Positions 21,435 to 41,888 are shown, numbered from the stretch's first letter. The stretch: 64,000 nt of DNA from Chamaesiphon sp. (GCA_965246715.1 CBDFFH010000002.1:192001-256000); one strand, 5' to 3'. Numbers and translations are program-made. Notes: generated by a model from the sequence alone, not told the origin.

Positions 21435-22391
21435 CTAACTCCCCCCAATTCGCGCCACATCGCGAGAATTCTCCTCAAACGCAGCATTGAGCGCATCATC
21501 ACCACTCAAGCCCGAAGCCAGCGCATTCTGAATCGCCTGCAACACCCGCTTATAGTCACGCGGCATCACCTTCACGAACTTCGGCACCATCTCATCCCAG
21601 TTGGCTAGCACTTCCGATGCTTTCTTACTCTTGGTATATCGGGCGTGCTTATCGATCGAGTCCTTCAACTTCCCAATCTCTTCAGCATCCGTCACCTTCT
21701 CTAACCCCACCATCTGCGTATTGCAGCGCGTCGGGAAATCGCCCTGCTCGTCGAGGATGTAGGCAACACCGCCACTCATCCCCGCTGCGAAATTGCGTCC
21801 GGTTTTACCTAATACGATCGCTTGTCCGCCTGTCATGTATTCACAACCATGATCGCCGATCGATTCTACAATTGCACTCACACCAGAATTACGCACACAG
21901 AACCGTTCGCCAGCCATGCCGTTGATGTAGATTTCGCCGCTGGTGGCTCCGTAGAGGGCGACGTTGCCGACGATGACGTTTTCGGCGGCGATGAAGGTGG
22001 ATTTGGGCGAGGGGTAAAGGATGATTTTACCGCCGCTGAGTCCTTTGCCGATGTAGTCGTTGGCATCGCCTTCGAGTTCGAGAGTGACTCCTTTGGGGAT
22101 GAATGCGCCGAAGCTTTGTCCGGCACTACCTTGGAATTTGAGGTGGACGGTATCGGCGGGGAGTCCGTGCCAGTGGTTTTTGGTGATTTCGTTACCGAGG
22201 ATGGTGCCTACGGCGCGGTTGACGTTGCAGATCGGGAGGGTGGCTTTAGTTGGTTTGCCGTGTTCAATTGAGTCTTTGCACAGGTCTAATAAAGTAGTAA
22301 TGTCGAGGGATTTGTCAAGTCCATGATCTTGGGCGATCTGGTGATAGCGTCCGACTTCTGCGCCTGCTTCTGGCTGGTAGAGCAGATTAGA
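21435..22391 (-). pseudogene. gltB: gltB 3'-end copy A (~957 bp, frame open, no 5' part)
   Basis: Colinear with 37245-38201, [10 protein letters not shown]...ARIGGS*, with many synonymous differences. Confidence 0.95.
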
Positions 22392-22422
22392 TGCGAGGGC
22401 GGCATTTGGCTCGATCGAAAGC

Positions 22423-22743
22423 TTGTCACCCGATCGAAGAGAGAAAAATGATATGATTAGTGCATGTATTAAGTATTGCGTTTATCTCAAGGATATACCT
22501 ACTGCGCTTTTAACTCCAGAGGAGCAAGATTTTATGAAGACGATGGCACAAATCGATGCTTGGTATGAAACTGAAATTAATAAGGCTAAACTTGAGGGTG
22601 AGCTTGAAGGTGAGCAACGTCAAAAACAGTCGATCGCACTTAAAATGATTCAAGAAAATATCCCCTTTGAGGTAATATCTCGGATTACTGGACTTAAAAT
22701 CGATCAATTACAACAACTTCAATCTTCACCAAACAATGGTTGA
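22423..22743 (+). pseudogene. C-terminal fragment of an Rpn/PD-(D/E)XK-like protein
   Basis: KAKLEGELEGEQRQKQSIALKM..ISRITGL tail is typical of these proteins; no nuclease domain. Confidence 0.55.
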
Positions 22744-22770
22744 TTGACCGTAATCGATCGAGCTTAATAT

Positions 22771-23166
22771 TTACCAAATTGTTTTCACATGAGGGTATTT
22801 TAGAATATTGTTGTCGCAGGTAATTAGTGGGACATCAGATCTTCTTGCCATCGCTACAATAATTCTGTCAGCAGGATCTTTATGGAAATCGCCTGGTAGT
22901 TGGGTACTGGCGATCGCGTCTTCAGGATTCAGTGCTTCGATTACTATTCCTGAGTGACTTTTGGCTAGGGCATACCAATCATCAATCGGTAAGGGTAATG
23001 CTAATTTACCCAGACTAGATTTTACGGCTATCTCCCACACTGAAATAGCTGAAACTAAGATGCCATTTTGGTCTTCTTCAATCTCGATCTGTGCTCGTGC
23101 AGCATTCGATAGTTGACTCGGATCGTGCAAGAGCCATAACCAAATATGGGTATCAATAACAATCAT
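22771..23166 (-). CDS. VapC/PIN toxin
   Basis: IDTHIWLW, SAISVWEI, HKDPADRIIVA and LITCD. Confidence 0.92.
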   Translation of the reverse strand: MIVIDTHIWLWLLHDPSQLSNAARAQIEIEEDQNGILVSAISVWEIAVKSSLGKLALPLPIDDWYALAKSHSGIVIEALNPEDAIASTQLPGDFHKDPADRIIVAMARRSDVPLITCDNNILKYPHVKTIW

Positions 23167-23396
23167 TCACCCAAAGCCATCCACAGATCGGTCATTGGGG
23201 CATCAAAATCAGGTTCGATCTGAATTGGCGTTCCGCGCAAGGGATAATGTTTTTGGTCGTTTAACTTAGTCTCGTTCTGGGTTGTGGCTGTTACTGGGTA
23301 GTTACTACCGAGGGAGCGGATAAAGTCTAAAAGGCTTAGTTGCATTGGTTCGGGGATTTTCTCTAGTTCCCGGACTATCGATTCTATCGTACTCAT
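23163..23396 (-). CDS. Antitoxin (DUF2281-like)
   Basis: ELEKIPE..LLDFIRSL..PDFDAP; ATGA overlap with vapC. Confidence 0.75.
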   Translation of the reverse strand: MSTIESIVRELEKIPEPMQLSLLDFIRSLGSNYPVTATTQNETKLNDQKHYPLRGTPIQIEPDFDAPMTDLWMALGE

Positions 23397-23924
23397 GATG
23401 TAATGGGGTAAATTGAATATGATTCAATTTTACCATTCTCACATTTAGGCAACAAGGATCGATCAAATTGTCAGAGACTACCTCCGGTAGGCTACGCCAA
23501 TGAGTCATAGTAACAGCATCGAATCCCCAACTCTCACAATCAAAAACACTAAAATTATCAATATCAAGTTAACTATAAACTTTTGTTTAATGCATGTCGT
23601 AAAATAGTCTCTGTATATTGTGCATGTTCGTTGGTATGTCCTGTTGTTTCAACTGAGACAGCCATTCTAGTATCTTGGCTATCATATAGATGAATATAGA
23701 AAATATGTTGCCCATCTTGCGTTCTGCGATTAGATCTTTGTAAATCATTCACGGGCGCAGCAAAGGCCGCATCATTGTATCTGACAAGATCGATCCATTC
23801 TAAATCTTCTAGCCGATGCCTTAGTGTGTCCCAACTTCTGGGGCGATGATGAGCAAATCCCTCCTGGACATTAACAACTTGATTTCTATCTCTATGAGAG
23901 ACAGGAGGTGCGTTAACCCTCTGT

Positions 23925-24040
23925 TCTAATTCATTGTTTTCATTGCGTAGATTATCAACGCTTTGCTGTAGGTTATTATTTTCATTGCGTAGATTGTTAA
24001 CGCTTTGCTGTAAATTATTATTTTCATTGCGTAGATTTTC
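23925..24040. repeat. 42-bp coding tandem repeat (NLRNENNNLQQSVx), about 3 units
   Basis: TTTTCATTGCGTAGATT recurs at 42-bp spacing. Confidence 0.85.
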
Positions 24041-24091
24041 AATTGTTTGATTGTTATCATCATCGATCATTCCGATTATATCCTGTCGCTC

Positions 24092-25506
24092 GGCTCTACC
24101 GAACTTGCTATGCTAAGTAGTGGATAAGAATCAAGTTTAATTGACAAAATTGATAATTTTGAGTTATGGAAGCTTGGTGCAGCATAAATGACAGATTTTA
24201 TTATAGAATAGTAAGATCTTGATTTCTGGCAACAAATAAGCTTGAATTGCATTATGTCATCCAAATCGCAACTAAAAACCATTAATGAAATTCTTAATAT
24301 CGACGGAATGACCGTCACTGCTTATAAGATCTTAGATGAAATCGGTTATTTTATTTATCTAGAAAATCAGCAATTAAAAGCAGTGTGTCCTCATTGTGGA
24401 ACTGAAAGTAATAAACTTCATGAGAATCACCAATTAACAGTGAGAGATCTACCATTCGGTGAACATGATGTTTACCTTAAAATTAATCGTCGTCAATTCA
24501 AGTGTATGAGTTGTGGTCGAAAATTCAGTGAGGAATTAAATTTCATCAAAAAGAGAAGTCATTTCACCGAGCGAATGAAGCAGAAGATTGTCGAAGAGAG
24601 TCTAGCTAGTGATATTAAAAGTGTTGCCAAAAGAAATGGATTAAGTGAGCAAGAAGTGGAGACAATAATCAAAAAAGCTGGGGTAAATCTAGTGCAAAAA
24701 AAGCCAGAGAATTTAACCAGACTAGGAATTGATGAAATTGCCTTTGTTAAAGGGCAAAAAAACTATTGTGCGGTGTTAGTAGATCTAGAAAAAAGAGAGT
24801 TAATAGCCATCTTACCAAAAAGGACTCAAGAATGTATTGGTGAGTGCTTGAAGTCTTGGGGTTCGGAGGTTTTGAACCAAATTACAGAAGTAAGTATCGA
24901 TCTATTTTCATCATACAAAAGTCTGGTAAATGAATTGATACCAAATGCTGAAGTGGTTGGAGACAGATTTCATGTAATGAAACAGATAAATGAAGAGTTA
25001 GATCGAGAGAGAATTAAAATCAAAAGAGAGGCTGAGAGGGTGAAGAACAAAGATGAAAAGAACAAGAAATTAGCAGCATTAACTCACAGTAAATATGCAA
25101 TACTCAAAAACGAAGCGGATTTGAATGAATTGCAAAAAGAGAAGTTGAAAGAGATTGGAGACGTTTTTCCAGAATTAGCAGCAATGCACAAAACAAAAGA
25201 GTTATTTAGAGATATATTTGAATCAAAAACAGATTGGGGAAATGGGCTAATAAGCTTGTGTGACTGGCTCAAGAATGCTTGTGGGAAATTCCCCAAGAGT
25301 TGTGGAACTATTAAAAGATGGATTGGTGAAATAATTGCCTATTTTGATAATAGAACAACTCAAGGAGTCGTCGAAGGAATTAACAATAAACTCAAGCTAA
25401 TAAAAAGAATGGGATATGGGTTTAGAAATTTTGAGAATTTTCAGATCAGAAGTTTGCTAGCATGGCATTTCAATCCTTGATTTAGCATAGTAAGTTCGGT
25501 AGAACC
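24092..25506 (+). mobile_element. ISL3-family IS
   Basis: IR GGCTCTACCGAACTT..CTATGCTAA / TTAGCATAG..AAGTTCGGTAGAACC; 8-bp TSD TGTCGCTC. Confidence 0.93.
24242..25480 (+). CDS. ISL3-family transposase
   Basis: CPHC/CMSC zinc finger, LGIDE, SIDL, DRFHV and EGINNKLKLIKR. Confidence 0.95.
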   Translation: MNCIMSSKSQLKTINEILNIDGMTVTAYKILDEIGYFIYLENQQLKAVCPHCGTESNKLHENHQLTVRDLPFGEHDVYLKINRRQFKCMSCGRKFSEELNFIKKRSHFTERMKQKIVEESLASDIKSVAKRNGLSEQEVETIIKKAGVNLVQKKPENLTRLGIDEIAFVKGQKNYCAVLVDLEKRELIAILPKRTQECIGECLKSWGSEVLNQITEVSIDLFSSYKSLVNELIPNAEVVGDRFHVMKQINEELDRERIKIKREAERVKNKDEKNKKLAALTHSKYAILKNEADLNELQKEKLKEIGDVFPELAAMHKTKELFRDIFESKTDWGNGLISLCDWLKNACGKFPKSCGTIKRWIGEIIAYFDNRTTQGVVEGINNKLKLIKRMGYGFRNFENFQIRSLLAWHFNP

Positions 25507-26527
25507 TGTCGCTCTAGATCGAGCTGTTCTCTCTCTTGTTCGAGTTGTTGCGCGTTTTGCTCAGATTCAATCGCTCTTTGTTCAGCATCAATTGCCCTTT
25601 GTTCGGCTTCCAGCTTCTCTGCCTGAGTTCTAGATTCTGATTTTTGAATAGATTCAGCAATTTCTCGATATTCACGAGCACTATCACGAGCTTCAATAGT
25701 AGCTTGATTTGCAGAAAGAACTTGGTCTGTAGCCTGCCGAATTTTTCTCTCACTCTCTAGTTTTACCTCAGTAGCTTGACGAATTTTCTGCTCTGCTTCT
25801 AGCTCTTGGCGATCGGCCCTAACTTTTATATAAGATGCTAATTCTGTTAATAGCCAAACAAGAACACCTGTCAGTATTGCAGAACCAGTAATTGCATTAT
25901 AAACTTTTTGCCACTGTTGTTCCAAGGATTTTGCCACCATGATAGCAGTTCAGATTGAAAGGATGGTGGATTTCCTCTTAATAGATAAACTCTGCCGATA
26001 ACATTTCCGCGATTTTGTTTACCAGTTGAAACTTTTTGAATAGAACGAGGACTATCGAACTTCCATTCTTGTTCGATCGGAGCTGGATCGCGTAATATGA
26101 GAAAATCTCCATTTAGCTTCTGCGCCGGATAATCTGTATCGTTAAATCTTTCAGCCCAGGTTGGCGAATATTGATATTTTTGTATCTCTAATTTCTGTTT
26201 GCCATCCGGTGCTGTTTTTACGATTGCTTTTGAGGCATAGATGATTTTTTGCTGCCGACAGTCTAATTTATCAGACTTGCAATCAGTTACAATAATACCA
26301 AATAGTCCATAGTTGCTATCTAAGGTTTCTTGTAAGCCTTTTGGGTCATTATTCAATAGTTGCGTTGATAGTTTAGTGGGCAGTGTATTAGCTAAAATAT
26401 TAAAATCAACTGTCTGAACTCTTTTGACAGTAACATTCCAATAGTTTTCATTATTGTAATAAATAGTACATACGCTGGTTAGTGTCGAAAACCCTAAAGC
26501 ACCAATCAGTCGGATTGCCGAGCTTTT

Positions 26528-26665
26528 AGCGCATTCCCAATCGCTTGCAACACCCGCTTATAGTCACGCGGCATCACCTTCACAAACTTCGGCACCATCT
26601 CATCCTAATTCGCCAGCACGGACATCGCTTTCTGACTCTTGGTATATTGGGCGTGTTTCTCGATC
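26528..26665 (-). pseudogene. gltB: gltB 3'-end copy B (short, internal stop, truncated at both ends)
   Basis: [41 protein letters not shown]. Confidence 0.9.
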
Positions 26666-26675
26666 TCAAATTGAG

Positions 26676-27014
26676 TTATTCCTCTGTTAGATCGGGTTCC
26701 AAATCCAATGCAAATAAGATCGCTTGTTTAATTTTCAGCATCACATCATCGGGTAGCTGCCCTAATTTTCTTTCCAATCTGACTGTTGGTATCGAAGCGA
26801 TCCCTTGAACATTGGCGATCGAATCTCGATCTAGAAACCGAAGTCTTGGCAAGACAACTTCGTATGAACTATCTCGATACTGAGTTGTCAATGGCACATA
26901 GATTGCCAGTGCCCTTGGGGGATCTAGATCGTGGCGGGAGACAATTACAACTGGACGAGTTTTCGCAGCTATCCCCAGATCCGCTAGCCACACTTCACCA
27001 GGATTAAGGTTCAT
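26676..27014 (-). CDS. PemK/MazF-family toxin
   Basis: PGEVWLADLG..KTRPVVIVS, VPLTT, RKLGQL. Confidence 0.88.
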   Translation of the reverse strand: MNLNPGEVWLADLGIAAKTRPVVIVSRHDLDPPRALAIYVPLTTQYRDSSYEVVLPRLRFLDRDSIANVQGIASIPTVRLERKLGQLPDDVMLKIKQAILFALDLEPDLTEE

Positions 27015-27192
27015 CGATTAAATCCAGCACATCTTGTTCGACAGTTCGCGATGGCAGTAAATCGAGAATATCGCGATCTGCCAAATCAATAATTTCTGAG
27101 ATATATTGACGGACTCGATCGGATATTTCTGGCTTCCACTCTTGCAATTTAATTCCTAGTCTTTCAGTCAAGGCATCCATCAGTATCTCCAT
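27004..27192 (-). CDS. Putative antitoxin
   Basis: Small ORF overlapping the toxin start; its N-terminal ~60 aa are nearly identical to 36849-37130. Confidence 0.75.
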   Translation of the reverse strand: MEILMDALTERLGIKLQEWKPEISDRVRQYISEIIDLADRDILDLLPSRTVEQDVLDLIDEP

Positions 27193-27329
27193 TGCAAATG
27201 ATGGGACATTTCTATTTTGCCAAGTTTATGACAGCATAACAAGTAAACAGAGCAATGCTTTTAGACCATTCTACTAGCATTGCCTCACTCGTGCGCCCCT
27301 GGCGGAGCTTTGCTCATCGATCTAACGTC

Positions 27330-28001
27330 TTAACTCCCCCCAATTCGCGCCACATCGCGAGAATTTTCCTCAAACGCAGCATCTAGAGCATCATCGCCAC
27401 TCAACCCCGAAGCCAGCGCATTCTGAATCGCTTGCAACACCCGTTTATAGTCACGCGGCATTACCTTCACAAACTTCGGCACCATTTCATCCCAATTAGC
27501 CAGCACTTCTGTTGCTTTCTGACTCTTGGTATATTGAGCGTGTTGCTCGATCGAACCCTTTAACTTCTCAATCTCCTCAGCATCCGTCAGCGTTTCCAAT
27601 CCCACCATCTGGGTATTGCAGCGTGTCGGGAAATCACCCTGCTCGTCGAGGATGTAGTGGCAACTCCGGCGGCGATCGTGCCGACTCCGACTTCGGATAC
27701 TAGTTTGACGTTGATTCGGGCTTCCCGATTGGCATTTTTGAGATCGTGGATCAGTTCGGCGAGATCTTCGATCGAGTAGATGTCATGGTGCGGTGGGGGT
27801 GAAATCAGCCCTAAGCCTGGGGTGGAGTGACGAACTTTGGCAATCCAGGGATAGACTTTTTTGCCTGGGAGTTGTCCGCCTTCGCCTGGTTTGGCTCCCT
27901 GTGCCATTTTGATCTGGATTTCTTTGGCTTGGGAGAGGTAGAGGCTGGTAACGCCAAATCGTCCTGATGCGACTTGTTTGATGCCGCTATTTTTCGAGTC
28001 G
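27330..28001 (-). pseudogene. gltB: gltB 3'-end copy C with an internal ~1.14 kb deletion
   Basis: [18 protein letters not shown] is joined at ~27657 to YILDEQ..ARIGGS*. Confidence 0.93.
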
Positions 28002-28055
28002 ATCGAGATGTTAATATGTCTCTATTCCGACCGTTAGTAGGCTCCACCACCGAGC

Positions 28056-28994
28056 ATGAGTAAAAGCATCGACCATGACCAGTTGTTCAAGCAACTATTA
28101 ACGACTTTCTTTCTGGAGTTTCTAGAATTATTTACACCAGAATTCTTCGCCGCGATCGATCCTCAGAGTCTTGAAATTCTCCCGCTCGAATACTTTACCG
28201 ACATCGAAGCTGGCGAACGCAAGGCGATGGATGTCATTGTCAGAGTTAATCTTCTCGGTCGTCCCAATGCTCCACCTAGCAGTCGAGTGTCGGTAGTCGT
28301 CAATTGCGAACACCAATCCACTACCCAAGCTAATTTTCATCGGCGGATGTTCTTTTACTTCGCGCAACTGCATCGGAAGTACTTACAGCCAGTCTACCCG
28401 ATCGCGTTATTCTCCTTTGATGAGCCATATCGACCGGAACGAGATTCTTATCAGGTTCGAGTGCCTGGTTTGCAGGTGATGGATTTCAATTTCCTGACGA
28501 TCCAACTCAATCGATTGGACTGGAGAGAGTTTGTGGCTCAACCCAATCCAGTCGCAGCGGCGTTAATGGCTAAGATGGAAATCGATCCAGCAGATCGCCC
28601 ACGGGTTAAGGTGGAGTGTTTGCGGATGATTGCGAACCTCAAGTTAGATAAGGCGAGAACTTTTCTGATATCGGGATTCATCGATAATTATCTGCGGCTG
28701 AATCCGATTGAAGAGCAGCAGTTTCAGGTTGAAGTTGATAAAATTAAATTACCTACAGAACGGGAGAACGTGATGGAACTTACTACTAGTTGGATGGAGA
28801 AAGGAATAATACAAGGTCGGGAGTCAGAAGGAAGGGGATTAGTAGTCAAGCTTCTAACTCGGAAACTCGGCAACCTCTCGCCAGAACTTTTATCGCGGGT
28901 AAATGGTTTGAATCTCGATCGAGTGGAAGTCTTGGCAGAAGATTTGTTAGATTTTACCAATGTGGGAGATTTAGAGCGGTGGCTGGCGGTTTGA
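28056..28994 (+). CDS. Rpn-like PD-(D/E)XK protein with a DUF4351-type C-terminus
   Basis: DHDQLFKQLL, CEHQS, RRMFFYF, TSWMEKG and LAEDLLDF motifs. Confidence 0.82.
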   Translation: MSKSIDHDQLFKQLLTTFFLEFLELFTPEFFAAIDPQSLEILPLEYFTDIEAGERKAMDVIVRVNLLGRPNAPPSSRVSVVVNCEHQSTTQANFHRRMFFYFAQLHRKYLQPVYPIALFSFDEPYRPERDSYQVRVPGLQVMDFNFLTIQLNRLDWREFVAQPNPVAAALMAKMEIDPADRPRVKVECLRMIANLKLDKARTFLISGFIDNYLRLNPIEEQQFQVEVDKIKLPTERENVMELTTSWMEKGIIQGRESEGRGLVVKLLTRKLGNLSPELLSRVNGLNLDRVEVLAEDLLDFTNVGDLERWLAV

Positions 28995-29271: not shown

Positions 29272-31011
29272 ATGAGTGCATGTCAAACAGTTAATGTATG
29301 GACAACAGAAAAAGTTCTAGTTCCAATTGTCTCCTTCATAACGCGAGCGCGAGAAGTATGCCAAGAGTTAAGACAACAAATTGAGGAACAGGTCAGTCAG
29401 CCTGTTGAGAATTGGATTTCTCAACAAGAAAGAAGATGTCGTGATCTTCCTTGGTGGAATCCTGTAAGATGGTTTTGCGAAATTGTTAGTGTTGTAGTTA
29501 AGGTAGTTACTTGGGTTGTAATTACGGTTGTTAAGTGGGTTATCACGATAGTTTGTCAAATTGTTACCGAAGTTATCGGTGCAATTGTGACTTTTGTTCT
29601 TCGAGTTATAGCTTGGTTAGTTTCTTTCGCCGTCTGCCTTTTTACCGATCCGCTTGATGCTCTTAAATCATTTCGGGATCTTTGGGGAATTATCCTCGAT
29701 CTAGTAGATGATATTTTTGATATTGTTAAAGTTCTGATAAATGATATCGCTGGTATTTTGGATGATATAGACAATCTACTTGGTTCTTTAGCTGACTCAC
29801 TAGGAATTGTAGGCGCAGTAATCTTTGGTATATTCCGTGGAGCGGTTCAAATTGCGAGAGATGTCGTGAATATTGTTCGCGATTTTATCGAAGGAATACA
29901 AAATTTAGTAGGAGGTATCTTAGGTCTAAATCTTTGTCGTATTTTATCAGGACTATCTGATATTGGAATCGGAGCTGTTATGGCTATCATTCGTACTGGT
30001 GGAGGATTTATACCTCTTATTATTGTACGTGCGGCTGGAAACATCGTTGCAGGCGTTCGTGATTCAGCTAATCTTAACCGGATTGAAGATATAATTACGG
30101 ATGCTCTCAATAATGCTTTTCCTGAAGATCCAGAGCGAAAGGAACGTGCAATCAAGCGAATTGGTTTGGGAAATCGTCCAATGGGACTCCCTTTTACCTC
30201 CCAGCCCCGACGATATTTTCTCTCTTCTCGATCGAGTGACATCGATTTACGAGTGCTTCACAAAGAAGAAATCATAAATTTATATGAGCTTGCAGGTTAT
30301 TTTTCTGGGTGCAAAGATGCTCTAAACCGTCCTCGCGGAGAGGTCGTTTATGCAGGAACAGATTTGAAAGTTTCGTATGCTGATTTAAGCCGCTTCTTAG
30401 ATGAAGGAGTAGAGGCAGCACCAGCCTTTAATGTTTATCCAATTACCAAAGCAGTATTTACGAGATATCTATATATAGCTCGTCGTAAGTCACAGCAACT
30501 TGGGATCAAGCTATATTGGAATTCTATTGATGAATTACCCATCGAAAAACCTGACCAAGTTCAATTTATGATTGCTAACGGAGGTTCTGGTGTCCAATCA
30601 TTACTTGAGCAGCAACTTGCTCGTTTTGGTCGCACAGGCAACAACGATGACTTATCTCAAATTCCTAATTTGGCTGTATTTAACTTCAGCCCAAATAATT
30701 TCAATGGAATTACTTCATGGTTTAGACCACCATTAACTGATGCTAAGACTGGGATTGCTTTCAAAGATCGTTTTCCTGAATTTGCCTTTCGTTGGGTGCT
30801 TATTCACGAACTAGGTCATTACTGGGGGTTGAATCATCACGGTGGACTTGAATCCATTATGTTTACTCCAAACGATAGTCCCACCCCTGTTACGCCAGAA
30901 ACAGTTTTGGAGTATCTATTACTGTCAGGTGAACCCAATTTTAATCTTCAGGATGCGAGAGATACATGGTCATGGATTACGAAAACTGCTAGTAAATCTT
31001 TACTTCCTTAA
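29272..31011 (+). CDS. Hypothetical membrane protein with a C-terminal metzincin-like zinc-protease motif
   Basis: Cys/Trp/Val-rich hydrophobic N-terminus; HELGHYWGLNH followed by a SIM Met-turn. Confidence 0.7.
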   Translation: MSACQTVNVWTTEKVLVPIVSFITRAREVCQELRQQIEEQVSQPVENWISQQERRCRDLPWWNPVRWFCEIVSVVVKVVTWVVITVVKWVITIVCQIVTEVIGAIVTFVLRVIAWLVSFAVCLFTDPLDALKSFRDLWGIILDLVDDIFDIVKVLINDIAGILDDIDNLLGSLADSLGIVGAVIFGIFRGAVQIARDVVNIVRDFIEGIQNLVGGILGLNLCRILSGLSDIGIGAVMAIIRTGGGFIPLIIVRAAGNIVAGVRDSANLNRIEDIITDALNNAFPEDPERKERAIKRIGLGNRPMGLPFTSQPRRYFLSSRSSDIDLRVLHKEEIINLYELAGYFSGCKDALNRPRGEVVYAGTDLKVSYADLSRFLDEGVEAAPAFNVYPITKAVFTRYLYIARRKSQQLGIKLYWNSIDELPIEKPDQVQFMIANGGSGVQSLLEQQLARFGRTGNNDDLSQIPNLAVFNFSPNNFNGITSWFRPPLTDAKTGIAFKDRFPEFAFRWVLIHELGHYWGLNHHGGLESIMFTPNDSPTPVTPETVLEYLLLSGEPNFNLQDARDTWSWITKTASKSLLP

Positions 31012-31025
31012 ATGGAGAGACTGAA

Positions 31026-31469: not shown

Positions 31470-32459
31470 ATGCAACTTTTTCCAGCTTTGATTCGCGATT
31501 TATTTGTGAATTCTTGGTCAGCATTATACCAAGTGTTTACCATTTTTGTTGATTATGTGCGCCGACTCTGCATAGAGAAGCGCGTGCCAGAAAGGATTCG
31601 ACGACTCTCAACAGATCCGTGTGTTGCAATCCAAAGACCAGAATTCAAGCGACCAGATCCACTCATCTATTCACAGTCATATTTGATGGAACAGGGGTTG
31701 GCTGTCACTTGGGATAATCCTGACATTGAGCTTCGCCGTAATGGTGTAGTAGTTCCTTCTGAAAAATTGGAACTCGATACTGAGTATGAAATTGTTGCAA
31801 CTGTATGGAATAATTCTACCGATGCTCCCGTAATACAGTTGCCAGTCTCATTTTCCTTTTTGAGTTTTGGTGCTGGCACACTAGAGCAAACCATTGGTAT
31901 TAATAAGGTCGATCTAGGGGTAAAAGGTGGCTTAAATCACCCAGCATTCGCCACTATATTTTGGCGGACACCAAATATTCCTGGACACTATTGTATTCAA
32001 ACAGAACTTCAATGGAAAGATGACTTAAATCAGAAAAACAACCTTGGTCAAGAGAACACGCTGGTTGGGGTAATTAGTTCTCCAGCTAAATTTCAATTTT
32101 CACTTCGCAACAGTGATTCAGTCGCCCGCCAGTTTAGATTTGAAATTGATACCTATACTTTACCAAAACTGATTACCTGTCCTCAACGTGAAGATTCCAA
32201 ACAATCACCACAAAACACTGGTTCTCTGCGATTACAAACAATACGCGAACGTCACAATCGACAGAATTTTCCACTTCCGGAAGGTTGGAATGTCTCATTT
32301 AACACTTCACAACCACTCTTACAACCAGGAGAAGAGATTGCAATCGATGTGTCTGCCGAAGCTCCCACTGGATTTCGTGGACGGCAGCCAATCAACTTAA
32401 ACGTGTTTCATGAGGAAGGATTCTTCGGTGGAGTTACTCTTTATGCTGTAAGCCAATGA
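31470..32459 (+). CDS. Hypothetical protein with predicted Ig/CARDB-like beta domains
   Basis: PDPLIYSQ, WDNPDI, GHYCI and NNLGQEN; beta-rich. Confidence 0.65.
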   Translation: MQLFPALIRDLFVNSWSALYQVFTIFVDYVRRLCIEKRVPERIRRLSTDPCVAIQRPEFKRPDPLIYSQSYLMEQGLAVTWDNPDIELRRNGVVVPSEKLELDTEYEIVATVWNNSTDAPVIQLPVSFSFLSFGAGTLEQTIGINKVDLGVKGGLNHPAFATIFWRTPNIPGHYCIQTELQWKDDLNQKNNLGQENTLVGVISSPAKFQFSLRNSDSVARQFRFEIDTYTLPKLITCPQREDSKQSPQNTGSLRLQTIRERHNRQNFPLPEGWNVSFNTSQPLLQPGEEIAIDVSAEAPTGFRGRQPINLNVFHEEGFFGGVTLYAVSQ

Positions 32460-32468
32460 GGTAATGAC

Positions 32469-33632: not shown

Positions 33633-33689
33633 CCAATTACTTTTCAACCTTTTTCTAAATAGTTTTAGACTTACAAATAGGAGATTTTA

Positions 33690-33911
33690 ATGTACACACT
33701 CATTCGTTCACTGCCATTAAATCGCTTGGTTTCAGAACAACTACCCACATTTGTAGTTTCATTTGCAATAGCAGAAACGTTCTACAAATTTCACAGTTTT
33801 ACTTTGGAATGTGGAGCCTTTTTGCTAACTTGGTTTGTCTTCGATGGTTTAATCCAGATTGGATTAAGACTACTTCGAGCTAATCGAACTCACCAGGGTG
33901 AACGCACTTAA
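33690..33911 (+). CDS. Small membrane protein whose last codons were replaced by ISAs1
   Basis: AGGAG RBS; the original end ..ANRTHR* is recoverable across the TSD. Confidence 0.65.
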   Translation: MYTLIRSLPLNRLVSEQLPTFVVSFAIAETFYKFHSFTLECGAFLLTWFVFDGLIQIGLRLLRANRTHQGERT

Positions 33912-35381
33912 ATTTCCTACTATTTAAAATCCTCGCAAATCAGTTGCAGATTTGAATTACGAAAAGTATGAAAGCTTTAATGGTAAACAAGTATAGCCAG
34001 TTAATTATGTTATATTTATTGGAAATTCAGATCGCGTCAAATGAAGCTAAAGCCAAGGCATAGTATCGCAGAACACTTTGGTGACATAAAAGACATTAGA
34101 ATTGAACGGGGGAAAAAACACAAACTAATCGATATTATCACGATCTCGATTTGTGCAGTAGTATGTGGAGCAGATGGATGGGAAGACATAGAGCTGTATG
34201 GCATCACCAGAAAAAAATGGCTGGAGGAATTTCTAGAATTACCGAATGGGATACCATCTCACGATACATTTGCACGGGTATTTTCACAAATTAATCCTGA
34301 AGAATTCAATAAATCTTTCCTGCATTGGATTAAAGGAATAAGTAAAATAACAGCAGGAGAGATAATCGCATTTGATGGAAAACAATCTCGAAATTCAAGA
34401 GACGAAAAAAATGGTAAAGGAGTAATTAATACGGTCAGTGCTTGGGCAGCAAGTAATAGATTAGTATTAGGACAAACAAAAGTCGAGAGTAAATCAAATG
34501 AAATTACTGCATTGCCTGAGTTGATTAATGCCTTAGATCTAGCTGGATGTATAGTGACAATTGATGCAATGGGATGTCAGCGAGAAATAGTCAAGAAAAT
34601 TGTCAAAAAAGAAGCAGATTATGTAATTGCTGTCAAAAAGAATCAACCAAGTTTATATGAAAGGGTAGAACAGCTATTCAAACAGGCGATTAAAACTCGT
34701 GGTGAAAGTCTGAAAACGCATAGCTTCAGCAGTAGAGAGATGAATAGAGGTAGAGAGGAAACTCGTAATTACCTAATGATATCAGACATTGCAACATCAA
34801 TAGATCCATTGCTAAAATGGCAAAATCTGACTAGTATTTGCATGGTAGAATCAGTTCGAGTTGTCAATGAAAAAACCAGCGTAGAAGCTCGTTATTTCAT
34901 CAGTAGCTTAGAAGATAATGTTGAAAAACTAGCAGAAGCAATCAGAGGTCATTGGTCGATAGAAAATTCACTCCATTGGGTACTTGATGTTATTTTCAAA
35001 GAAGACATTAGTCGAATTAGAAAAGATAATGCTCCAGCTAATTTTGCTGTTTTAAGACATATAGCAGTTAATATAATGAGTCAGAACAAGAGTCGAAAAC
35101 TAAGTGTTAGGAAGAAGCGATTTCTTGCGAGCCTTGATGAAGAATATTCGCGCGAACTTCTAGAGGCTATTTTAGCCTAAATTTAACTAACCCCAGAGTA
35201 TGAATTTGGCTAAATATCTTTAGCCGCACTTTTGCCGGACTAAATTGAGTTAATTTAACCTCGTCTTTGGTTTCGATTTTATTGATATTGTCGTAATTGT
35301 AGTTAAGCAATCGAATATCATTAATCGCCTATTTTAGTGGCTCTCGATCGAAATAAATCCTGTTTTGATGCGTTCACCCTG
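33894..35381 (+). mobile_element. ISAs1-family IS, copy 2 (1488 bp)
   Basis: Same IRs and length as copy 1; 10-bp TSD TCGAACTCAC. Confidence 0.95.
34041..35180 (+). CDS. ISAs1-family transposase
   Basis: Protein identical to 15482-16621. Confidence 0.95.
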   Translation: MKLKPRHSIAEHFGDIKDIRIERGKKHKLIDIITISICAVVCGADGWEDIELYGITRKKWLEEFLELPNGIPSHDTFARVFSQINPEEFNKSFLHWIKGISKITAGEIIAFDGKQSRNSRDEKNGKGVINTVSAWAASNRLVLGQTKVESKSNEITALPELINALDLAGCIVTIDAMGCQREIVKKIVKKEADYVIAVKKNQPSLYERVEQLFKQAIKTRGESLKTHSFSSREMNRGREETRNYLMISDIATSIDPLLKWQNLTSICMVESVRVVNEKTSVEARYFISSLEDNVEKLAEAIRGHWSIENSLHWVLDVIFKEDISRIRKDNAPANFAVLRHIAVNIMSQNKSRKLSVRKKRFLASLDEEYSRELLEAILA

Positions 35382-35484
35382 TCGAACTCACCGATAATTG
35401 GCATAACACAACCATTAAAAATAGATTGACTCATTAAAAATCGAGATGAGATCGAATTAATTTGGGACTTTCACGAAAAACAAG

Positions 35485-35520
35485 TTTTTGGACTGAGGCT
35501 TAACACCCCAGTCCAAAAAA
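35485..35520. terminator. Bidirectional terminator-like hairpin just 3' of gltB copy D
   Basis: TTTTTGGACTG.GG..CC.CAGTCCAAAAAA. Confidence 0.65.
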
Positions 35521-35530: not shown

Positions 35531-35753
35531 CTAACTCCCGCCAATTCGAGCAACATCGCGAGAATTCTCCTCAAAAGCAGCATCGAGCGCATCATCGCCA
35601 CTCAACCCCGAAGCCAGCGCATTCTGGATCGCTTGCAACACCCGTTTATAGTCACGCGGCATCACCTTCACAAACTTGGGTACCATCTCATCCCAGTTGG
35701 CTAGCACCTCTGTTGCTTTCTGACTCTTGGTATATTGAGCGTGTTGCTCGATC
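35531..35753 (-). pseudogene. gltB: gltB 3'-end copy D (223 bp)
   Basis: [23 protein letters not shown]...ARIGGS*. Confidence 0.93.
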
Positions 35754-35757: not shown

Positions 35758-36165
35758 TTAGCTAACAAAAACTTGAGGTGTAACAATTGGGATACCCCTG
35801 AAAGGATGAAGCACAAGCAAATCAGCATCATCACTGACAATACATCCAGCACCACCACTCACAGCCAATTCGAGAAACTTGTTGTCCTTCGAGTCACGGC
35901 AATCAGTAACAACTTCCGTAACTTCAACAATCATTGCATCATTTACAAATTTAGATAGAAATTGTAACCGCTCATCCTCTGAAATATAACGATTGAACTT
36001 GGGACGGCGCAACACATTATCAAGTTCAACTAGAATAGCATCAGACACTAAAACAGTGCCGAGAAAGAAGGCTAGATCGAATGCTTACCGAGGCACAGAA
36101 CATGGTGATAATACAGCACTGACAATCACATTGGTATCCAAGACAAATGTCTTACTACTCGTCAC
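35758..36165 (-). pseudogene. PIN-family toxin with a premature stop at 36085-36087
   Basis: FVLDTNVIVSAVL..PR*AF..CRDSKDNKFLELA..IVSDDADLL. Confidence 0.85.
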
Positions 36166-36385
36166 CAAGCAAAGTCTCCAAAATTTGAGGTGTTAGCCCC
36201 CGCGCTTCCGCCTTTGCCCCAATATCATCCATGATTTGTTGCAATGAAACGTCAGATGGAGCGAATAGTTCGCGAACATGCAACGATAGAAGCAACTGGA
36301 TCTTCTGTTGTTGCTCTGCTGATGCTTGGCTATATGCAAGAGCCGTAGGGACATCGACAGGAATAGAAATCGTAGTATTTGTCAT
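36155..36385 (-). CDS. Putative antitoxin
   Basis: AEARGLTPQILETLL C-terminus; overlaps the PIN start. Confidence 0.72.
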   Translation of the reverse strand: MTNTTISIPVDVPTALAYSQASAEQQQKIQLLLSLHVRELFAPSDVSLQQIMDDIGAKAEARGLTPQILETLLGDE

Positions 36386-36532
36386 CACTGCTCTCCTTAA
36401 TTTCAAATGAATGGAAATTGCTAACAGAAGAGCAATATTACCCATCAACCTGCTCTTATCTCACTCTATGTCTTGATTATAGCTTTAGACTGTTAGGCTC
36501 GGATTAACGGCTCTATCTCGATCTAGATTCGT

Positions 36533-36862
36533 TTAAAAATTTGGTTTGACGTGCTTAGTCCAGACTTCCATCAAAGCTCTAGCATCACTCGATGATAATT
36601 CCCCTAATTTTCTAATCAATAACGATCGCTCTAGACAATCGAGACGGGACAATCGCACAGTCGAAGCAACCCGCAATCCACAGATCTCCCAGTCAATTAA
36701 CACCACATCTGTTTGAGTCCTTGGTTTAGATGAAGTTACCGCTGCTACCACAACATCATCTCCATCAATCCAGAGGATTAAAACAGGTCTTTTTTTAGAT
36801 GCTGAACCATCGGTGAAAGTTATTTCAGCTATCCATAATTCACCTGCTTTAACAGTCATCAT
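36533..36862 (-). CDS. PemK/MazF-family toxin
   Basis: FTDGSASKKRPVLIL, AAVTS, GLRVASTVRL and KLGEL. Confidence 0.88.
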   Translation of the reverse strand: MMTVKAGELWIAEITFTDGSASKKRPVLILWIDGDDVVVAAVTSSKPRTQTDVVLIDWEICGLRVASTVRLSRLDCLERSLLIRKLGELSSSDARALMEVWTKHVKPNF

Positions 36863-37130
36863 AGAGCTTATCATCTTCTGAACTGTAGCTATTTAGAAAG
36901 GCATCATGAGTACGAATGGAACCTGTCGAATTCGGTTGAATGGCAATCCGATCGATTAAATCCAGCACATCTTGTTCTACAGTGCGCGAGGGTAGGGAGT
37001 TGAGAACATCGCGATCTGCCAAGTCAATAATTTCTGAGATATATCGACGGACTCGATCGGATATTTCTGGTTTCCACTCTTGCAATTTAATTCCTAATCT
37101 CTCAGCCAGGGCATCCATCGGTATCTCCAT
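36849..37130 (-). CDS. Chimeric putative antitoxin
   Basis: N-terminus matches the 27004-27192 protein; unrelated C-terminus HDAFLNSYSSEDDKLYDDC. Confidence 0.72.
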   Translation of the reverse strand: MEIPMDALAERLGIKLQEWKPEISDRVRRYISEIIDLADRDVLNSLPSRTVEQDVLDLIDRIAIQPNSTGSIRTHDAFLNSYSSEDDKLYDDC

Positions 37131-37244
37131 TGCAGATGATGAAACATCTCTATTTTGCCAAGTTTGTGACAACATCACAAGTAATAGGAGCAATACTCTT
37201 GGACTATTCTATTGGCATTGCTCCACTCGATCCCCCATATTTAT

Positions 37245-40200
37245 CTAACTCCCCCCAATTCGAGCCACATCGCGGGAATTCTCTTCAAAAGCAGCATCGA
37301 GCGCATCATCACCACTCAAACCCGAAGCCAGCGCATTCTGAATCGCTTGCAACACCCGTTTATAGTCACGCGGCATCACCTTCACAAACTTCGGCACCAT
37401 TTCATCCCAATTCGCTAGAACTGCGATCGCTTTCTGACTCTTGGTATATTGAGCGTGTTTGGAGATCGAATCCTTCAACTTACCAATCTCTTCAGCATCA
37501 CTCAGAGTTTCCAAACCCACCATCTGAGTATTGCAGCGTGTCGGGAAATCACCCTGCTCGTCGAGGATATAAGCAACACCGCCACTCATCCCCGCCGCGA
37601 AATTGCGTCCGGTTTTACCCAAGACGATGACTTGTCCGCCTGTCATGTATTCACAACCATGATCGCCGATTGATTCTACAATCGCACTCACCCCAGAGTT
37701 ACGGACACAGAAACGTTCGCCAGCCATGCCGTTGATGTAGATTTCGCCGCTGGTGGCTCCGTAGAGGGCGACGTTGCCGACGATGACGTTTTCGGCGGCG
37801 ATGAAGGTGGATTTGGGCGAGGGATAGAGGATGATTTTACCGCCGCTGAGTCCTTTGCCGATGTAGTCGTTGGCATCACCTTCGAGTTCGAGGGTGACTC
37901 CTTGGGGAATAAATGCACCGAAGCTTTGTCCAGCACTACCTTGGAATTTGAGGTGGACGGTATCGGCGGGGAGTCCGTGCCAGTGGTTTTTGGTGATTTC
38001 GTTACCGAGAATGGTGCCGACGGCGCGGTTGACGTTGCAGATGGGGAGGGTGGCTTTGGTTGGTGTGCCATCAAGAATCGAGTCTTGGCACAGGTCTAAT
38101 AAAGTAGTAATATCGAGCGATTTGTCAAGTCCATGATCTTGGGAAATCTGTTGATAGCGTCCGACTTCTGCTCCAGCTTCCGGCTGGTAGAGGAGGTTGG
38201 AGAGGTCGATATTTTTGGCTTTCCAATGGGCGATCGCTTGTTTGGATTCCAGGATATCGGTGCGCCCGACCATTTCGTTGAGGGTACGGAAGCCGAGGGT
38301 TGCCATGATTTCCCGTAAGTCTTGGGCGATAAACCGCATGAAATTGACGGTGTGGGCGGGATCTCCGGTATAGGTGGCGCGGAGTTCGGGGTTTTGGGTG
38401 GCGATTCCGGCGGGACAGGTATTCAGATGGCAGACGCGCATCATAATACAGCCGAGGGTGACTAGCGGGGCGGTGGAGAAGCCGAATTCTTCGGCACCTA
38501 GCAGGGCGGCGATGGCGATGTCCCGTCCGGTTTTGAGTTGTCCGTCGGTTTCGACGACGATCCGGCTGCGGAGGTTATTCAGGACGAGGGTTTGGTGGGT
38601 TTCGGCGAGTCCGAGTTCCCAGGGGAGTCCGGCGTGTTTGATTGAGGTTTGGGGCGATGCTCCGGTACCGCCGTCGAAGCCGGAGATTAGTACTACATCG
38701 GCGTGGGCTTTGGCGACTCCGGCGGCGATCGTGCCGACTCCGACTTCGGATACTAGTTTGACGTTGATTCGGGCTTCCCGATTGGCGTTTTTGAGATCGT
38801 GGATTAGTTCGGCGAGATCTTCGATCGAGTAGATATCGTGGTGCGGTGGTGGTGAAATTAGCCCTACACCTGGGGTAGAGTGACGGACTTTGGCAATCCA
38901 GGGATAAACTTTTTTACCTGGGAGTTGTCCGCCTTCACCTGGTTTGGCTCCCTGTGCCATTTTGATTTGGATTTCTTTGGCTTGGGAGAGGTAGAGGCTG
39001 GTGACACCGAATCGTCCCGATGCGACTTGTTTGATGCCGCTATTTTTGGAGTCGCCGAGTTCGTTCGTCCAGGTGTAGCGTTCGGGATCTTCGCCGCCTT
39101 CGCCTGTGTTGGATTTACCGCCGATTCGGTTCATGGCGATCGCCAGTCCTTCATGTGCTTCACTAGAGATCGAGCCGTAGCTCATCGCGCCTGTTTTAAA
39201 GCGTTTGAGGATATTCTCGATCGGTTCTACTTCTTCAATGGGGATGGCTGTTTGCGGTTTAAAATCTAACAATCCGCGCAGGGTGAAGTGTTTTTTATCC
39301 TGCTCGTTAATCAGCTTGGCGTATTTTTGATAGATGTCGTATTTACCCGTCCGCGCCGCCTGTTGAAGCAAGTGAATACTTTCGGGGCTGAATAGATGCT
39401 CTTCACCATCTTTGCGCCACTGATAATCACCACCGACATCTAGTGTCGCACCTTTGGCTGGTCGATCGGGGAAAGCGTGAGTATGACGGGTAATCGTTTC
39501 TTGGGTAATTATGCCGACATCAGCACCTTCAATTCGCGAGGCGGTGCGGGTAAAGTATTTATCGATCGTGGCTTGATTTAAACCAACAGCTTCAAAAATC
39601 TGGGCACCACGATAACTCTGAATTGTCGAAATCCCAATCTTCGAGGCAACTTTAGTTACGCCTTTAGTGGCGGCTTTGATATAGTTTTTGACAGCAGTAG
39701 GATAGTCAACATCAAGCAACATTTTCTGAGCGATTAAATCCTCGATCGTCTCGAATGCCAAGTAAGGATTAATCGCTCCACAACCATAACCAATCAACGT
39801 CGCAAAGTGATGAACTTCACGGGGTTCGCCAGATTCTAATACCAATCCGACGCGGGTGCGGGTACCAGTGCGAATTAGATGGTGATGTAAGCCAGCAACC
39901 GCTAATAGTGCAGGGATGGGCGCAGTTTCAGGATTAACACCGCGATCGCTCAAAATTAGGATACTAATACCGGACTCGATCGCTTTATCTGCCGCTGCAA
40001 AAATGACATCTAAGGCTGCTTCCAGACCTTTCACCCCATCGTTAGGGTTGAATAGCATGGGGATAGTAACAGAACTAAATCCACCTTCATTCAGGTGCTT
40101 TAACTTCGCAAGTTCAGCATCACTTAAAATTGGCGATTTAAGGGCGATTAAATGACAACTTTCGGGTTCTGGTTTGAGTAAATTCCGCTCAGATCCGATC

Positions 40201-41888
40201 GTTGTTTGGGCAGAAGTGATAATTTCTTCGCGAATTGAATCGATCGGGGGATTGGTAACTTGAGCAAATAACTGTTGGAAATAATCGTAGAGTAATTTTG
40301 GTCGATCGGACAACACCGCCAACGGTGTATCAGTCCCCATCGAACCCGTTGCTTCCACACCATCCCGCGCCATCGGCGTAATCAGCATCCGCAACTCTTC
40401 AAAGGTATAGCCGAAAGCCATCTGACGTTGGAGAATCCCCCCTAGCCCCCCTTGGGAAGGGGGGGACAAGAGAGACTCTGCTCCGGCTCCCCCCTTATTA
40501 AGGGGGGTTGGGGGGGATTCAGGATCTGCGATGTCCTCCAGCCTGACTAAATGCTCGTCCAACCACGCCTGATAAGGATGTGCGCTAGTAATCTCATGCT
40601 TGATTTCCGCATCGCTCACAATCCGCCCAGCGACAGTATCCACCATGAACATCTTCCCTGGCTCCAACCGTCCCTTCGCCACCACCTGCTCCGGCGGAAT
40701 CGTCAGCACACCCGCTTCCGATGCCATAATCACCAGATCGTCAGTCGTCACATAGTATCGCCCTGGACGCAAACCATTCCGATCGAGTACCGCCCCGATC
40801 GAGCTACCATCAGTAAAGGCGATCGAAGCTGGGCCATCCCACGGCTCCATCAAGCAAGAATGGTACTCATAAAACGCCTTCTTCGCCGCGCTCATCGACT
40901 CATGCGCCGTCCACGGTTCGGGCACCATCATCATCATCGCATGGGGCAAACTGCGACCGGAAAGCGTCAATAATTCCAGGGCATTATCAAAAATTGTTGA
41001 GTCACTACCATCGACATTAATTGCAGGTTTAATCTTCTGAATATCGTCGCCGAATAAATCCGACGCAAACAGCGACTGCCGCGCCGTCATCCAGTTAATA
41101 TTGCCGCGCATGGTATTGATTTCACCATTGTGGGCGATGTAGCGATAGGGATGCGCCCGCTCCCAACTAGGGAAAGTATTGGTACTAAACCGCGAATGCA
41201 CCAACGCCAACGCGCTCTCCATGTCTGGATCTTGGAGTTCGGGGAAATATTGCCCCACCTGCACGGGCATCAACATCCCCTTATACACAATCGTCCGTGC
41301 CGATATACTCGCTACATACCAATGCACATCGACATTCGCCGCCCTAATTGCCGTATGCGCCAGCTTGCGAATCACAAATAACTTCCGCTCGAATGCTAAT
41401 TCATCCGCTAATTCCGGCGATTTGGCAATAAATACCTGCTGCATAAACGGTTCACTCGATTTCGCCGTCTCACCCAAGGAACCATTATCCGTCGGCACAT
41501 CCCGCCAACCCAATACCTTCAAGCCTTCCGCCGCCACAACTTCCGCGAAAATCTGACGACTTTTCGATCGAATCGCTGGATCTGGCGAACCATACACCGC
41601 CCCAACTCCATACTGTCCCGCTGCGGGTAATTCAATCCCTTCAGCAGTCGCCACCTTCTGCATAAACTTGTGAGGCACCTGCATCAAAATCCCCGCCCCA
41701 TCACCTGTATTTGTCTCGCATCCGCACGCGCCACGATGGTCGAGATTAACCAATATCGTCAGTGCTTGCGCCACAATCTGATGCGACTTCGCCCCTTTCA
41801 TCTGCGCGATCAAACCGATACCGCAAGCATCGTGCTCAAACTGCGGATCGTATAAACCTTGTTTGCTGGGTGGTTGAATGGTATTCAT
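37245..41888 (-). CDS. gltB: Glutamate synthase large subunit
   Basis: 1547 aa; EHDACG amidotransferase start, [36 protein letters not shown] (3Fe-4S) and the GXGXG domain. Confidence 0.97.
40435..40519. repeat. In-frame inverted pair of short dispersed repeats inside gltB
   Basis: CCCCCCTT..AAGGGGGG doublet encoding [10 protein letters not shown]...PPSQGGLGG. Confidence 0.8.

Follow-up and report, generated by a model that had tools for sequence, protein, structure and literature searches.

The question raised by this locus is how an intact gene came to be followed by several truncated copies of its own 3' end, each leading into different cargo. The gene is gltB (37245..41888, minus strand, 1547 aa), identified by Pfam as the large subunit of NAD(P)H-dependent glutamate synthase, with the NADPH large chain 7mfm as best PDB match, ranked above Fd-GltS. 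It lies in a 64,000-nt stretch (the window) of a Chamaesiphon sp. genome designated G000, other G-numbers denoting the compared genomes. A BLAST of the stretch against itself and an HMM built from gltB alleles recovered exactly four gltB 3' copies (E <= 1e-45), all lacking the 5' part and all on the minus strand like gltB itself, just as the initial annotation had described them. Tail D (35531..35753) covers gltB nt 4422-4644 and begins at the GATC of a CGATCG site; the terminator claimed for it is indeed a strong intrinsic-terminator-like hairpin of 15 pairs with a T-run (35485..35519, minus strand) and the sole strong one, terminator-like sites overall being not above shuffles (6 vs 13.4). 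Tail C (27330..28002), which starts at a cargo-side CGAT|CG, had been located correctly but is not a single piece: gltB nt 2835-3178 and about 4308-4643 meet at a microhomology of about 10 nt, marking an internal deletion, and homology to the resident locus runs about 290 nt beyond the stop. Tail B (26528..26665, gltB nt 4422-4559) shares its GATC start with D and is the most damaged of the four, with a nonsense codon (W->TAG) and a missing 3' end. Tail A (21435..22391, gltB nt 3688-4644, 91.5% identity; by HMM it reaches about 22425, i.e., nt 3649) has a frame open to the stop over 318 codons at 8.5% divergence, and a CGATCG about 26 nt upstream of it is possibly the conserved nt-3653 site. 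The authentic stop is kept in A, C and D, the codon in C reading TAA rather than TAG. The variable protein patches had also been quoted correctly; the patch was dropped as a selected feature, since ordinary resident alleles vary there too.

Cassette 1 (36533..37193, minus), an antitoxin-like ORF with a PemK/MazF toxin, also follows gltB directly in G042 and takes the second place behind it in G016 and G021. Cassette 2 (35758..36448, minus), an antitoxin-like ORF and a PIN toxin gene interrupted by a stop, is fused by its end to tail D. The ISAs1-type IS at 33890..35383 (plus) is a later, independent insertion, not present in a contig of metagenome run X3 that is colinear in all other respects; a composite transposon made of two identical ISAs1 copies was rejected, each having its own 10-bp target duplication. 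The five-gene operon (29272..33911, plus) encodes a first protein with a HExxH motif and a weak metalloprotease match, a 387-aa protein giving the only, weak PADLOC match (LeoB, 4.6e-5), and a 579-aa protein whose 108 homologues are nearly all unnamed or hypothetical; in Atlas the operon fell into unnamed clusters with metalloprotease leads below 0.9. An Rpn-like (DUF4351) gene (28056..28994, plus) abuts the start of tail C in a back-to-back fusion. A region homologous to the antitoxin region downstream of the resident gltB (26676..27290, minus) meets a different MazF gene at ATCGAT, and the end of this MazF gene is fused to tail B. Between B and A (22771..26356) are unknown ORFs, an ISL3 transposase (24242-25480) and a DUF2281/PIN pair (22771-23396), and after A (15331..21434) come a DUF6887 pair, a pentapeptide protein, DUF6883/DUF4926, a MazF pair, IS1 and the second ISAs1. 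Upstream of gltB, toxin-antitoxin (TA) cassettes (43170..53600, minus) are split by a locus-specific, family-restricted non-coding repeat of about 95 bp carrying two TCGATCGA palindromes; an Rfam search over 15-55 kb gave a single chance-level match only. The upstream array of congeners also contains gltB 5' heads, ending at nt 39 (G004), 325 (G010) and about 1020 (G013/G015/G042). Since the stacks of relatives hold known defence systems (Wadjet-type, DndB+HNH, GmrSD+HEPN, AIPR), cargo of unknown function, the five-gene operon included, is a candidate source of new defence functions.

Such a structure might be a chimeric assembly of several strains, the more so as run X1, possibly the source sample, is mixed and none of its listed contigs spans the whole stretch. 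This is extremely improbable, since independently assembled genomes repeat the junctions of B, C, D and the 3' side of A (the 5' junction of A was found in G000 only): the PIN|tail junction of cassette 2 and D is common to G000, G010 and G018, the MazF|tail junction of B to G000 and G024, and the Rpn|tail junction of C occurs in G000 and twice in G006. Furthermore, one X1 contig runs from the resident 3' end to the start of D with 4 differences, and in the independent run X3 a gltB 3' end is linked with the five-gene operon on one contig. Comparison of cargo order among congeners, as had been proposed, gave identical cargo|tail-start junctions in several species with different DNA beyond the tail each time. 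Tails of about 80 to about 1800 nt with several start points recur in the genus, and the DUF6887 cassette standing after tail A directly follows intact or long gltB in G010, G015, G004 and G124. One location holds cassettes that vary in number and kind and are near-identical between species.

Direct repeats, ISs, decay and the nonsense codon in B are all present, as local tandem duplication of the resident gltB end with neutral decay, or an IS-driven duplication, would have it. However, dN/dS between tails and resident gltB was 0.015-0.15 (0.027 for D, 0.015 and 0.094 for C), far below the value near 1 named for such decay in the initial annotation; dS was 0.27-0.45, compared with 0.19-0.58 for most congeneric gltB alleles. 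The open frame of A, at its degree of divergence, and the separate target duplications of the ISAs1 copies also speak against local copying, as does the affinity of A, C and D, each closest to the allele of another genome (nt 4432-4641). A clade of resident, A, C and D was rejected (p-AU 0.04, 210 nt), so that the suspected in-genome clade fell as a whole, while resident plus A stood in the same test (p-AU 0.29), the trees being star-like and poorly resolved. Taken together, the dN/dS values and the shared junctions refute local duplication, to which we give hardly any credence. In their sequence the four tails differ from the resident as alleles of other Chamaesiphon species would, which upholds the earlier suggestion of functional alleles from other lineages. 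Along gltB itself the nearest allele switches, and the gltB tree is star-like.

The region 18508-21611 is 99.5% identical in G011, while longer core-gene flank blocks of G011 are 95-97% identical. Differences between tail A and G011 number about 23 in nt 4304-4467, 3 in nt 4468-4486 and 1 in nt 4487-4644, i.e., the tail is chimeric, its part from nt ~4487 to 4644 being near-identical to G011 and its 5' part not. Because the differences drop along the tail and the cargo behind it is 99.5% identical, the crossover falls within the tail, at about 65 nt downstream of CGATCG; the clean breakpoint comes from this one recent pair (G000/G011). In most species the core genes beyond the cargo are not the same, although those of G000 and G011 agree; gltB is therefore often the sole shared anchor, and the resident gltB is likely the homology anchor of the array.

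The reading we consider probable is that an illegitimate join makes a cargo-plus-tail module, which RecA-type crossovers then insert from a circle or from linear DNA. In a rare first step, a cargo end would be fused to an internal point of gltB, often at or beside the HIP1-core palindrome CGATCG. DNA of another Chamaesiphon would then enter, likely by natural transformation (comEC and dprA are present), and a RecA-type crossover would occur inside the tail, singly if the donor is a circle, or as one of a pair if it is a linear gltB-cargo-tail molecule. This would leave gltB intact but mosaic, followed by the new cargo and then by the displaced tail, the 5' part of which would come from the donor and the 3' part, with the downstream DNA, from the old resident. 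Deletions at microhomologies, nonsense changes and inserted ISs, seen as end products, may represent the subsequent decay of the tails; TA pairs may oppose looping-out between the direct repeats, and a mirror process upstream would leave the gltB 5' heads. Of the Campbell integration proposed initially, the homology-anchored insertion with a crossover in the tail is retained, but a circle is unnecessary, because a linear gltB-cargo-tail donor gives an identical product; the two routes are indistinguishable from these data. The stack had also been read as a chronological record. Tail A, the farthest, is followed by the DUF6887 cassette, as oldest-is-farthest predicts, but decay is non-monotonic: B is the most damaged, whereas A is intact, with a 3' end and cargo 99.5% identical to another species, so that strict chronological decay was ruled out.

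Other core genes of G000 proved to be trailed by 3' fragments as well; a scan of cyanobacterial genomes for such cases had been proposed. A second array, at acnB, comprises three tails with dN/dS of 0.03-0.09, its junctions at nt 1291 and nt 1438 being shared with G006 and G014, respectively, and metH has one tail at 99.6% identity with 5 synonymous changes.

The joins themselves show a partial preference. B, D and the tails of five congeners begin at one CGATCG site (gltB nt 4421), B and D at the identical nucleotide, nt 4422, and five different cargoes join within about 10 nt (nt 4412-4423). Among 24 junctions, hand-chosen after the pattern had been seen so that the motif test is post hoc, CGATCG occurred at 5 against a 4.8% background (p 0.005) and GATCG/CGATC at 7 against 8.1% (p 0.002); p rose to 0.04 and 0.21 when the five nt-4421 joins were counted as one and the background was doubled. 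The remaining 19 of the 24 are more than 3 nt from a CGATCG, a motif found every 216 bp, and the four acnB junctions and that of metH all lie farther than this from it. CGATCG thus appears enriched among these junctions yet not the rule, and some joins likely started at this cyanobacterial HIP1-core palindrome. Inserts at CGAT^CG in the G011 tail and in the upstream array are presumably SDR5 elements. Natural CGAT^CG junctions were found in Chamaesiphon and, at GGCGATCGC, in one other family (G189). SDR5 is described as entering HIP1 in PMC4390886, where HIP1-linked site-specific recombination in Synechococcus is also cited.

A recombinase encoded elsewhere might integrate cassette circles at the nt-4421 CGATCG, with homologous recombination only reshuffling alleles later. 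The common start of B and D, the five cargo types joined there, the SDR5-like inserts at CGAT^CG and 23 tyrosine-recombinase matches elsewhere in G000 (besides 6 resolvase matches) would suit it. Yet the start base varies (the tails of G008, G015 and G018 begin 2-9 nt earlier). Six genomes have an nt-4421 tail on one contig with an upstream resident or long gltB copy, and in three of them (G000, G008, G018) this copy misses CGATCG at nt 4421, contrary to what a conserved att core predicts; the other tail starts, the upstream heads and the acnB and metH tails likewise have no common core. We therefore regard such a recombinase as unlikely.

Another source could be integrative elements, with ICE/IME to CIME tandem accretion at the gltB 3' end and subsequent loss of the integrases. 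The layout fits the accretion of ICEs, IMEs and CIMEs at the 3' ends of tRNA or housekeeping genes outlined in PMC5704250, and N-terminal integrase fragments lie beside two remnants, an acnB tail in G000 and the gltB remnant in G011. The acnB fragment, however, is the N-terminus of an integron integrase cut at the junction and thus looks like cargo; tail starts vary by about 1.8 kb, heads occur upstream, and modules measure 1-6 kb. No integrase or resolvase was found within the window, in agreement with the initial annotation, and neither a catalytic integrase domain nor an integrase-bearing element was found behind gltB among 118 hand-picked ORFs near gltB of relatives (many on short contigs); in these two sets, ISs were the only mobility genes. 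An integrative-element residue is hence quite improbable, and the stack likely grows by homologous recombination with gltB as anchor rather than by a dedicated integrase.

Like the accretion in PMC5704250, the locus has an intact target gene and then modules bounded by gene-end direct repeats, a gltB-end repeat flanking each module; unlike it, the stack lacks an integrase and a fixed att core, its tails measure 80-1800 nt and start at several points, heads mirror them upstream, and a crossover maps inside a tail. The additive flexible islands of Alteromonas (PMC4898812) mostly use tRNA/tmRNA anchors and are described as site-directed; they share varying cassette number and order, a left-over anchor-gene repeat and near-identical sharing across species, whereas here the anchors are protein-coding (gltB, acnB, metH) and the foreign-allele tails long. 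In the model of hotspots free of mobile elements (PMC5635113), housekeeping recombination suffices and competence is favourable, as here, and the flanking core gene becomes mosaic, as gltB may be; that model uses two conserved flanking genes, which were not found, downstream core genes differing among most species, while at gltB one gene and its displaced copy give both arms, so that an insertion adds DNA and can proceed even where no synteny remains past the gene. A gltB-gltD flanking pair was ruled out, gltD lying about 80 kb from gltB on the same contig in G000, about 80 kb in G011 and 1.6 Mb in G020. Nor did the designation of gltB as a housekeeping gene hold: G011, 99% complete in 3 contigs, possesses gltD yet no intact gltB 3' end, so this NAD(P)H-GOGAT subunit is dispensable.

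Homology-facilitated illegitimate recombination and Campbell insertion-duplication are known as laboratory events, mostly with deletions; they share the homologous anchor, its duplication and a microhomology join, whereas the gltB tails are repeated natural products spread between species, some with HIP1-core joins. In e14/icd of E. coli, a displaced icdC fragment, a 3' gene end of about 220 nt from a different allele, resembles the tails, but is integrase-driven and of a single fixed length. Integrons and CALINs share TA-rich cassette arrays, and attC follows the hairpin consensus RYYYAAC...GTTRRRY. By contrast, separators at gltB are gene tails, which are coding DNA, or the 95-bp repeat, in which inspection by eye and folding found asymmetric arms, no attC boxes and no conserved AAC opposite GTT. 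Of 27 genus genomes, 7 carry an intact intI (G000 has fragments only), and neither gene tails nor the 95-bp repeat were present in the 8 intI loci examined. The literature searched, which left most subscription journals and supplements outside, gave no description of gltB-tail arrays in cyanobacteria, and we regard the stack as a new variant of the known accretion hotspots.

The locus shows how hotspots without mobile elements could add genes and not only replace them; with one core gene and its displaced copy as arms, cassettes can cross species of differing gene order. The function of HIP1-type palindromes becomes testable through the natural CGAT^CG junctions. We hold it doubtful, if conceivable, that Chamaesiphon has an integrase-free, integron-like capture of defence and TA cassettes between species, with the HIP1 core for break-and-join, a gene tail or head as arm and the 95-bp repeat as swap site; if true, this would give HIP sequences a natural role in genome building. 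For mining genomes, a core gene trailed by a foreign-allele copy of its own tail offers a simple signature. In a scan of G000, paralogues included, 3' gene fragments numbered 19 downstream vs 10 upstream and 5' fragments 30 upstream vs 11 downstream; candidates C47, C14, C9 and C5 were dropped as full paralogues or repeat proteins.

All four gltB 3' copies of the initial annotation were recovered by self-search and with an HMM of gltB alleles, at 21435-22391 (A), 26528-26665 (B), 27330-28002 (C) and 35531-35753 (D), all on the minus strand downstream of the intact resident gene (37245-41888, minus strand); the HMM found no fifth copy. Tails B and D share their first base (nt 4422 of the gene), tail C consists of nt 2835-3178 joined to about 4308-4643 at a microhomology, and tail A forms a 318-codon open frame. 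The reported absence of an integrase from the window held, no resolvase was found there either, and the two ISAs1 copies present are independent insertions. The cargo includes a predicted five-gene operon at 29272-33911, a candidate defence system whose first protein carries HExxH, with homologues in many phyla; metagenome run X3 contains a copy of it at 95% identity. Microhomology deletions also join the four gltB pieces making up a tail in a congener (G006, L035:2044-2600), and the long tails of G006, G011, G014 and G017 decay likewise.

The low dN/dS against the resident (A 0.088, C 0.094 and 0.015 for its two parts, D 0.027, B 0.15) excluded simple duplication and decay of the resident gltB end. 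The dS values (0.27-0.45) lay within the range of congeneric alleles (0.19-0.58, excepting the more distant G010 resident); as proposed, the tails are foreign alleles. A clade of the resident with A, C and D was rejected in the 210-nt tree of 29 rows (p-AU 0.04), while a resident plus A clade was not rejected in the star-like 781-nt tree of 17 rows (p 0.29). Chimeric assembly was ruled out for B, C, D and the 3' side of A by recurrence of their junctions in other genomes; no single listed record covers the whole array, and the 5' junction of A was witnessed only in the studied genome. Furthermore, a contig of run X1 bridged the resident gltB end and D, and on one from the independent run X3 the five-gene operon is linked with a gltB 3' end, with the IS absent. 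Elsewhere in the same genome, contig C18 contains a ~22.5-kb direct duplication of near 100% identity, possibly a plasmid overlap or an assembly artefact.

Each travelling module consists of cargo and the adjoining tail start. Of the junctions, PIN/tail (D) was also present in G010 and G018, MazF/tail (B) in G024 and Rpn/tail (C) twice more, both in G006; where the tail end was preserved, the DNA following it differed between genomes. The window MazF was 85-88% identical to that in two Chamaesiphon sp. records, adjoining there a gltB 3' end 91% identical to that of the window, which places the studied genome in Chamaesiphon. The DUF6887 cassette behind tail A stands directly behind intact or long gltB in G010, G015, G004 and G124; likewise, gltB in the studied genome and in G042 is followed by the antitoxin found behind tail C. 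The single recent pair giving a breakpoint was the studied genome and G011, which are 99.5% identical over 18508-21611, the longer core-flank blocks of G011 reaching 95-97%. The differences between tail A and G011 fell from about 23 (nt 4304-4467) to 3 (4468-4486) and 1 (4487-4644), and therefore the exchange point lies inside the tail, away from its start, as homologous crossover predicts. Thus, of the proposed Campbell integration the homologous crossover stood, but the circle was not singled out: a linear gltB-cargo-tail donor with two crossovers fits equally well as a circle with one. Such donor DNA might be acquired by transformation (comEC and dprA are present), the crossover would be RecA-dependent, and the TA pairs may stabilise the resulting stack. 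Two segments, the promoter and start of a DUF2281 antitoxin (23311-23464) and a short palindrome-rich end segment (15163-15228), occur beside gltB cargo in many congeners and in 1-3 copies in the studied genome; they may be further swap points.

The tail layout is genus-wide. The last 236 nt of gltB matched in 18 of the 27 genus genomes, with at least two matches in 11 of these 18; downstream tails on the same contig were found in the studied genome, G006, G008, G010, G013, G015, G018 and G021, only 3' fragments in G011 and G024, and no tail in the complete genome G020. The relatives' cargo included TA pairs, a Wadjet-type operon, DndB+HNH, GmrSD+HEPN, AIPR and a zeta-toxin-like ORF, and the core genes past it were different in most species. 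None of 118 hand-picked ORFs from these loci had an integrase catalytic domain; one integrase N-terminal fragment lay near the G011 gltB remnant. Of the 138 matching genomes beyond the genus, only 4 (G039, G124, G189, G223) had a second match, and stacks are therefore rare there. In other families, a 914-nt tail (94%) follows four ORFs of no assigned function (G223, L095), and a 147-nt tail starting at GGCGATCGC follows an ATPase/DUF4276 pair (G189, L096).

The resident gene encodes the large subunit of NAD(P)H-GOGAT, with gltD ~80 kb away; a ~70-74% identical paralogue on contig C15 would be the ferredoxin-dependent enzyme. The NAD(P)H-GOGAT gltB is dispensable, because G011 kept gltD with gltB 3' fragments only and the C-terminus query used found no match in 110 of 251 genomes from the order. 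A palindromic insert within its frame (40433-40520, nt ~1369-1456) is variable or absent in congeners.

In congeners, 5' gltB heads followed by cargo were found upstream, ending at nt 39 (G004), at nt 325 on CGATCGA (G010), or at ~1016-1025 nt with one common junction (G013, G015, G042). A TA cassette array upstream of gltB (43170-53600, also at loci L180-L189) is separated by a ~95-bp non-coding repeat, in places tandem at a 95-bp period, which holds two TCGATCGA-type palindromes. The repeat matched in 18 of 27 genus genomes, weakly in the sister genus, and beyond the family by a single short match, located over an inserted element, among 200 order genomes; an Rfam search gave no match, and inspection by eye no attC likeness. 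A ~22-nt element resembling SDR5 occupies CGAT^CG sites at 44433-53135, L038:19242-19550 and L036:727-779, decayed gltB tails included.

The octamer TCGATCGA is the most frequent in the 6.1-Mb genome, where CGATCG occurs once per 216 bp, and is the dominant HIP1 derivative in Chamaesiphon according to PMC4390886, which also cites HIP1-linked site-specific and illegitimate recombination. HIP1 is reported to increase transformation efficiency (bioRxiv 10.1101/2024.09.10.611283), and a role for it in HGT has been proposed (PMC13756078). Most genus alleles carry CGATCG at nt 4421, the studied resident being without it, and five different cargoes (D-type, B-type, G021, G008, G015) join within ~10 nt of this site; tail C starts at a cargo-side CGAT|CG, and CGATCG lies just ahead of tail A. 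In a post hoc test on 24 junction classes listed by hand, CGATCG lay within 3 nt in 5 (4.8% expected, p 0.005) and GATCG/CGATC within the same distance in 7 (8.1% expected, p 0.002), D and B scoring on the 5-mer only because their boundaries were drawn against the motif-less resident. With the five nt-4421 joins counted as one and the background doubled, the p values became 0.04 and 0.21. The HIP core, which may direct the birth of junctions, is likely to contribute at gltB, but not as a rule, since the test was post hoc and none of the acnB and metH junctions had the motif.

HFIR and icd/icdC are further systems for comparison, and no account of this locus was found in the literature searched. 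The array works like tandem accretion (PMC5704250) and additive islands (PMC4898812), but has neither the integrase nor the fixed att; it also resembles recombination-driven hotspots (PMC5635113), yet here one core gene suffices.

Other core genes trailed by 3' fragments were found in the same genome at acnB and metH. The acnB array (C51:1-18997, L101) has three tails, from nt 1540, 1291 and 1438 (dN/dS 0.03-0.09), with TA, HNH, ATPase/DUF4276, methyltransferase and truncated integron integrase cargo; two of its junctions are also present in G006 and G014, and of the 15 genus genomes that matched acnB, 6 had at least two matches. The third tail is fused to the integron-integrase N-terminus, with divergently oriented small genes upstream, possibly a decayed integron. 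The metH tail (C2:155626-164984, L108; 1371 nt, 99.6% identity, five synonymous differences) lies ~4.4 kb after metH behind an NB-ARC/NACHT-type gene and was probably a recent within-species event. Genome-wide, paralogues included, 3' fragments were downstream in 19 cases vs 10 upstream, and 5' fragments upstream in 30 vs 11 downstream; one att-specific integrase does not account for this polarity together with the spread of heads and acnB/metH tails. Shorter fragments were a 66-nt 3' piece of a nitrite/sulfite reductase gene after a ParE TA pair (C15:369326-372393, L099) and a 115-nt zinc dehydrogenase tail starting at TCGATCGA (C27:136171-139437, L098).
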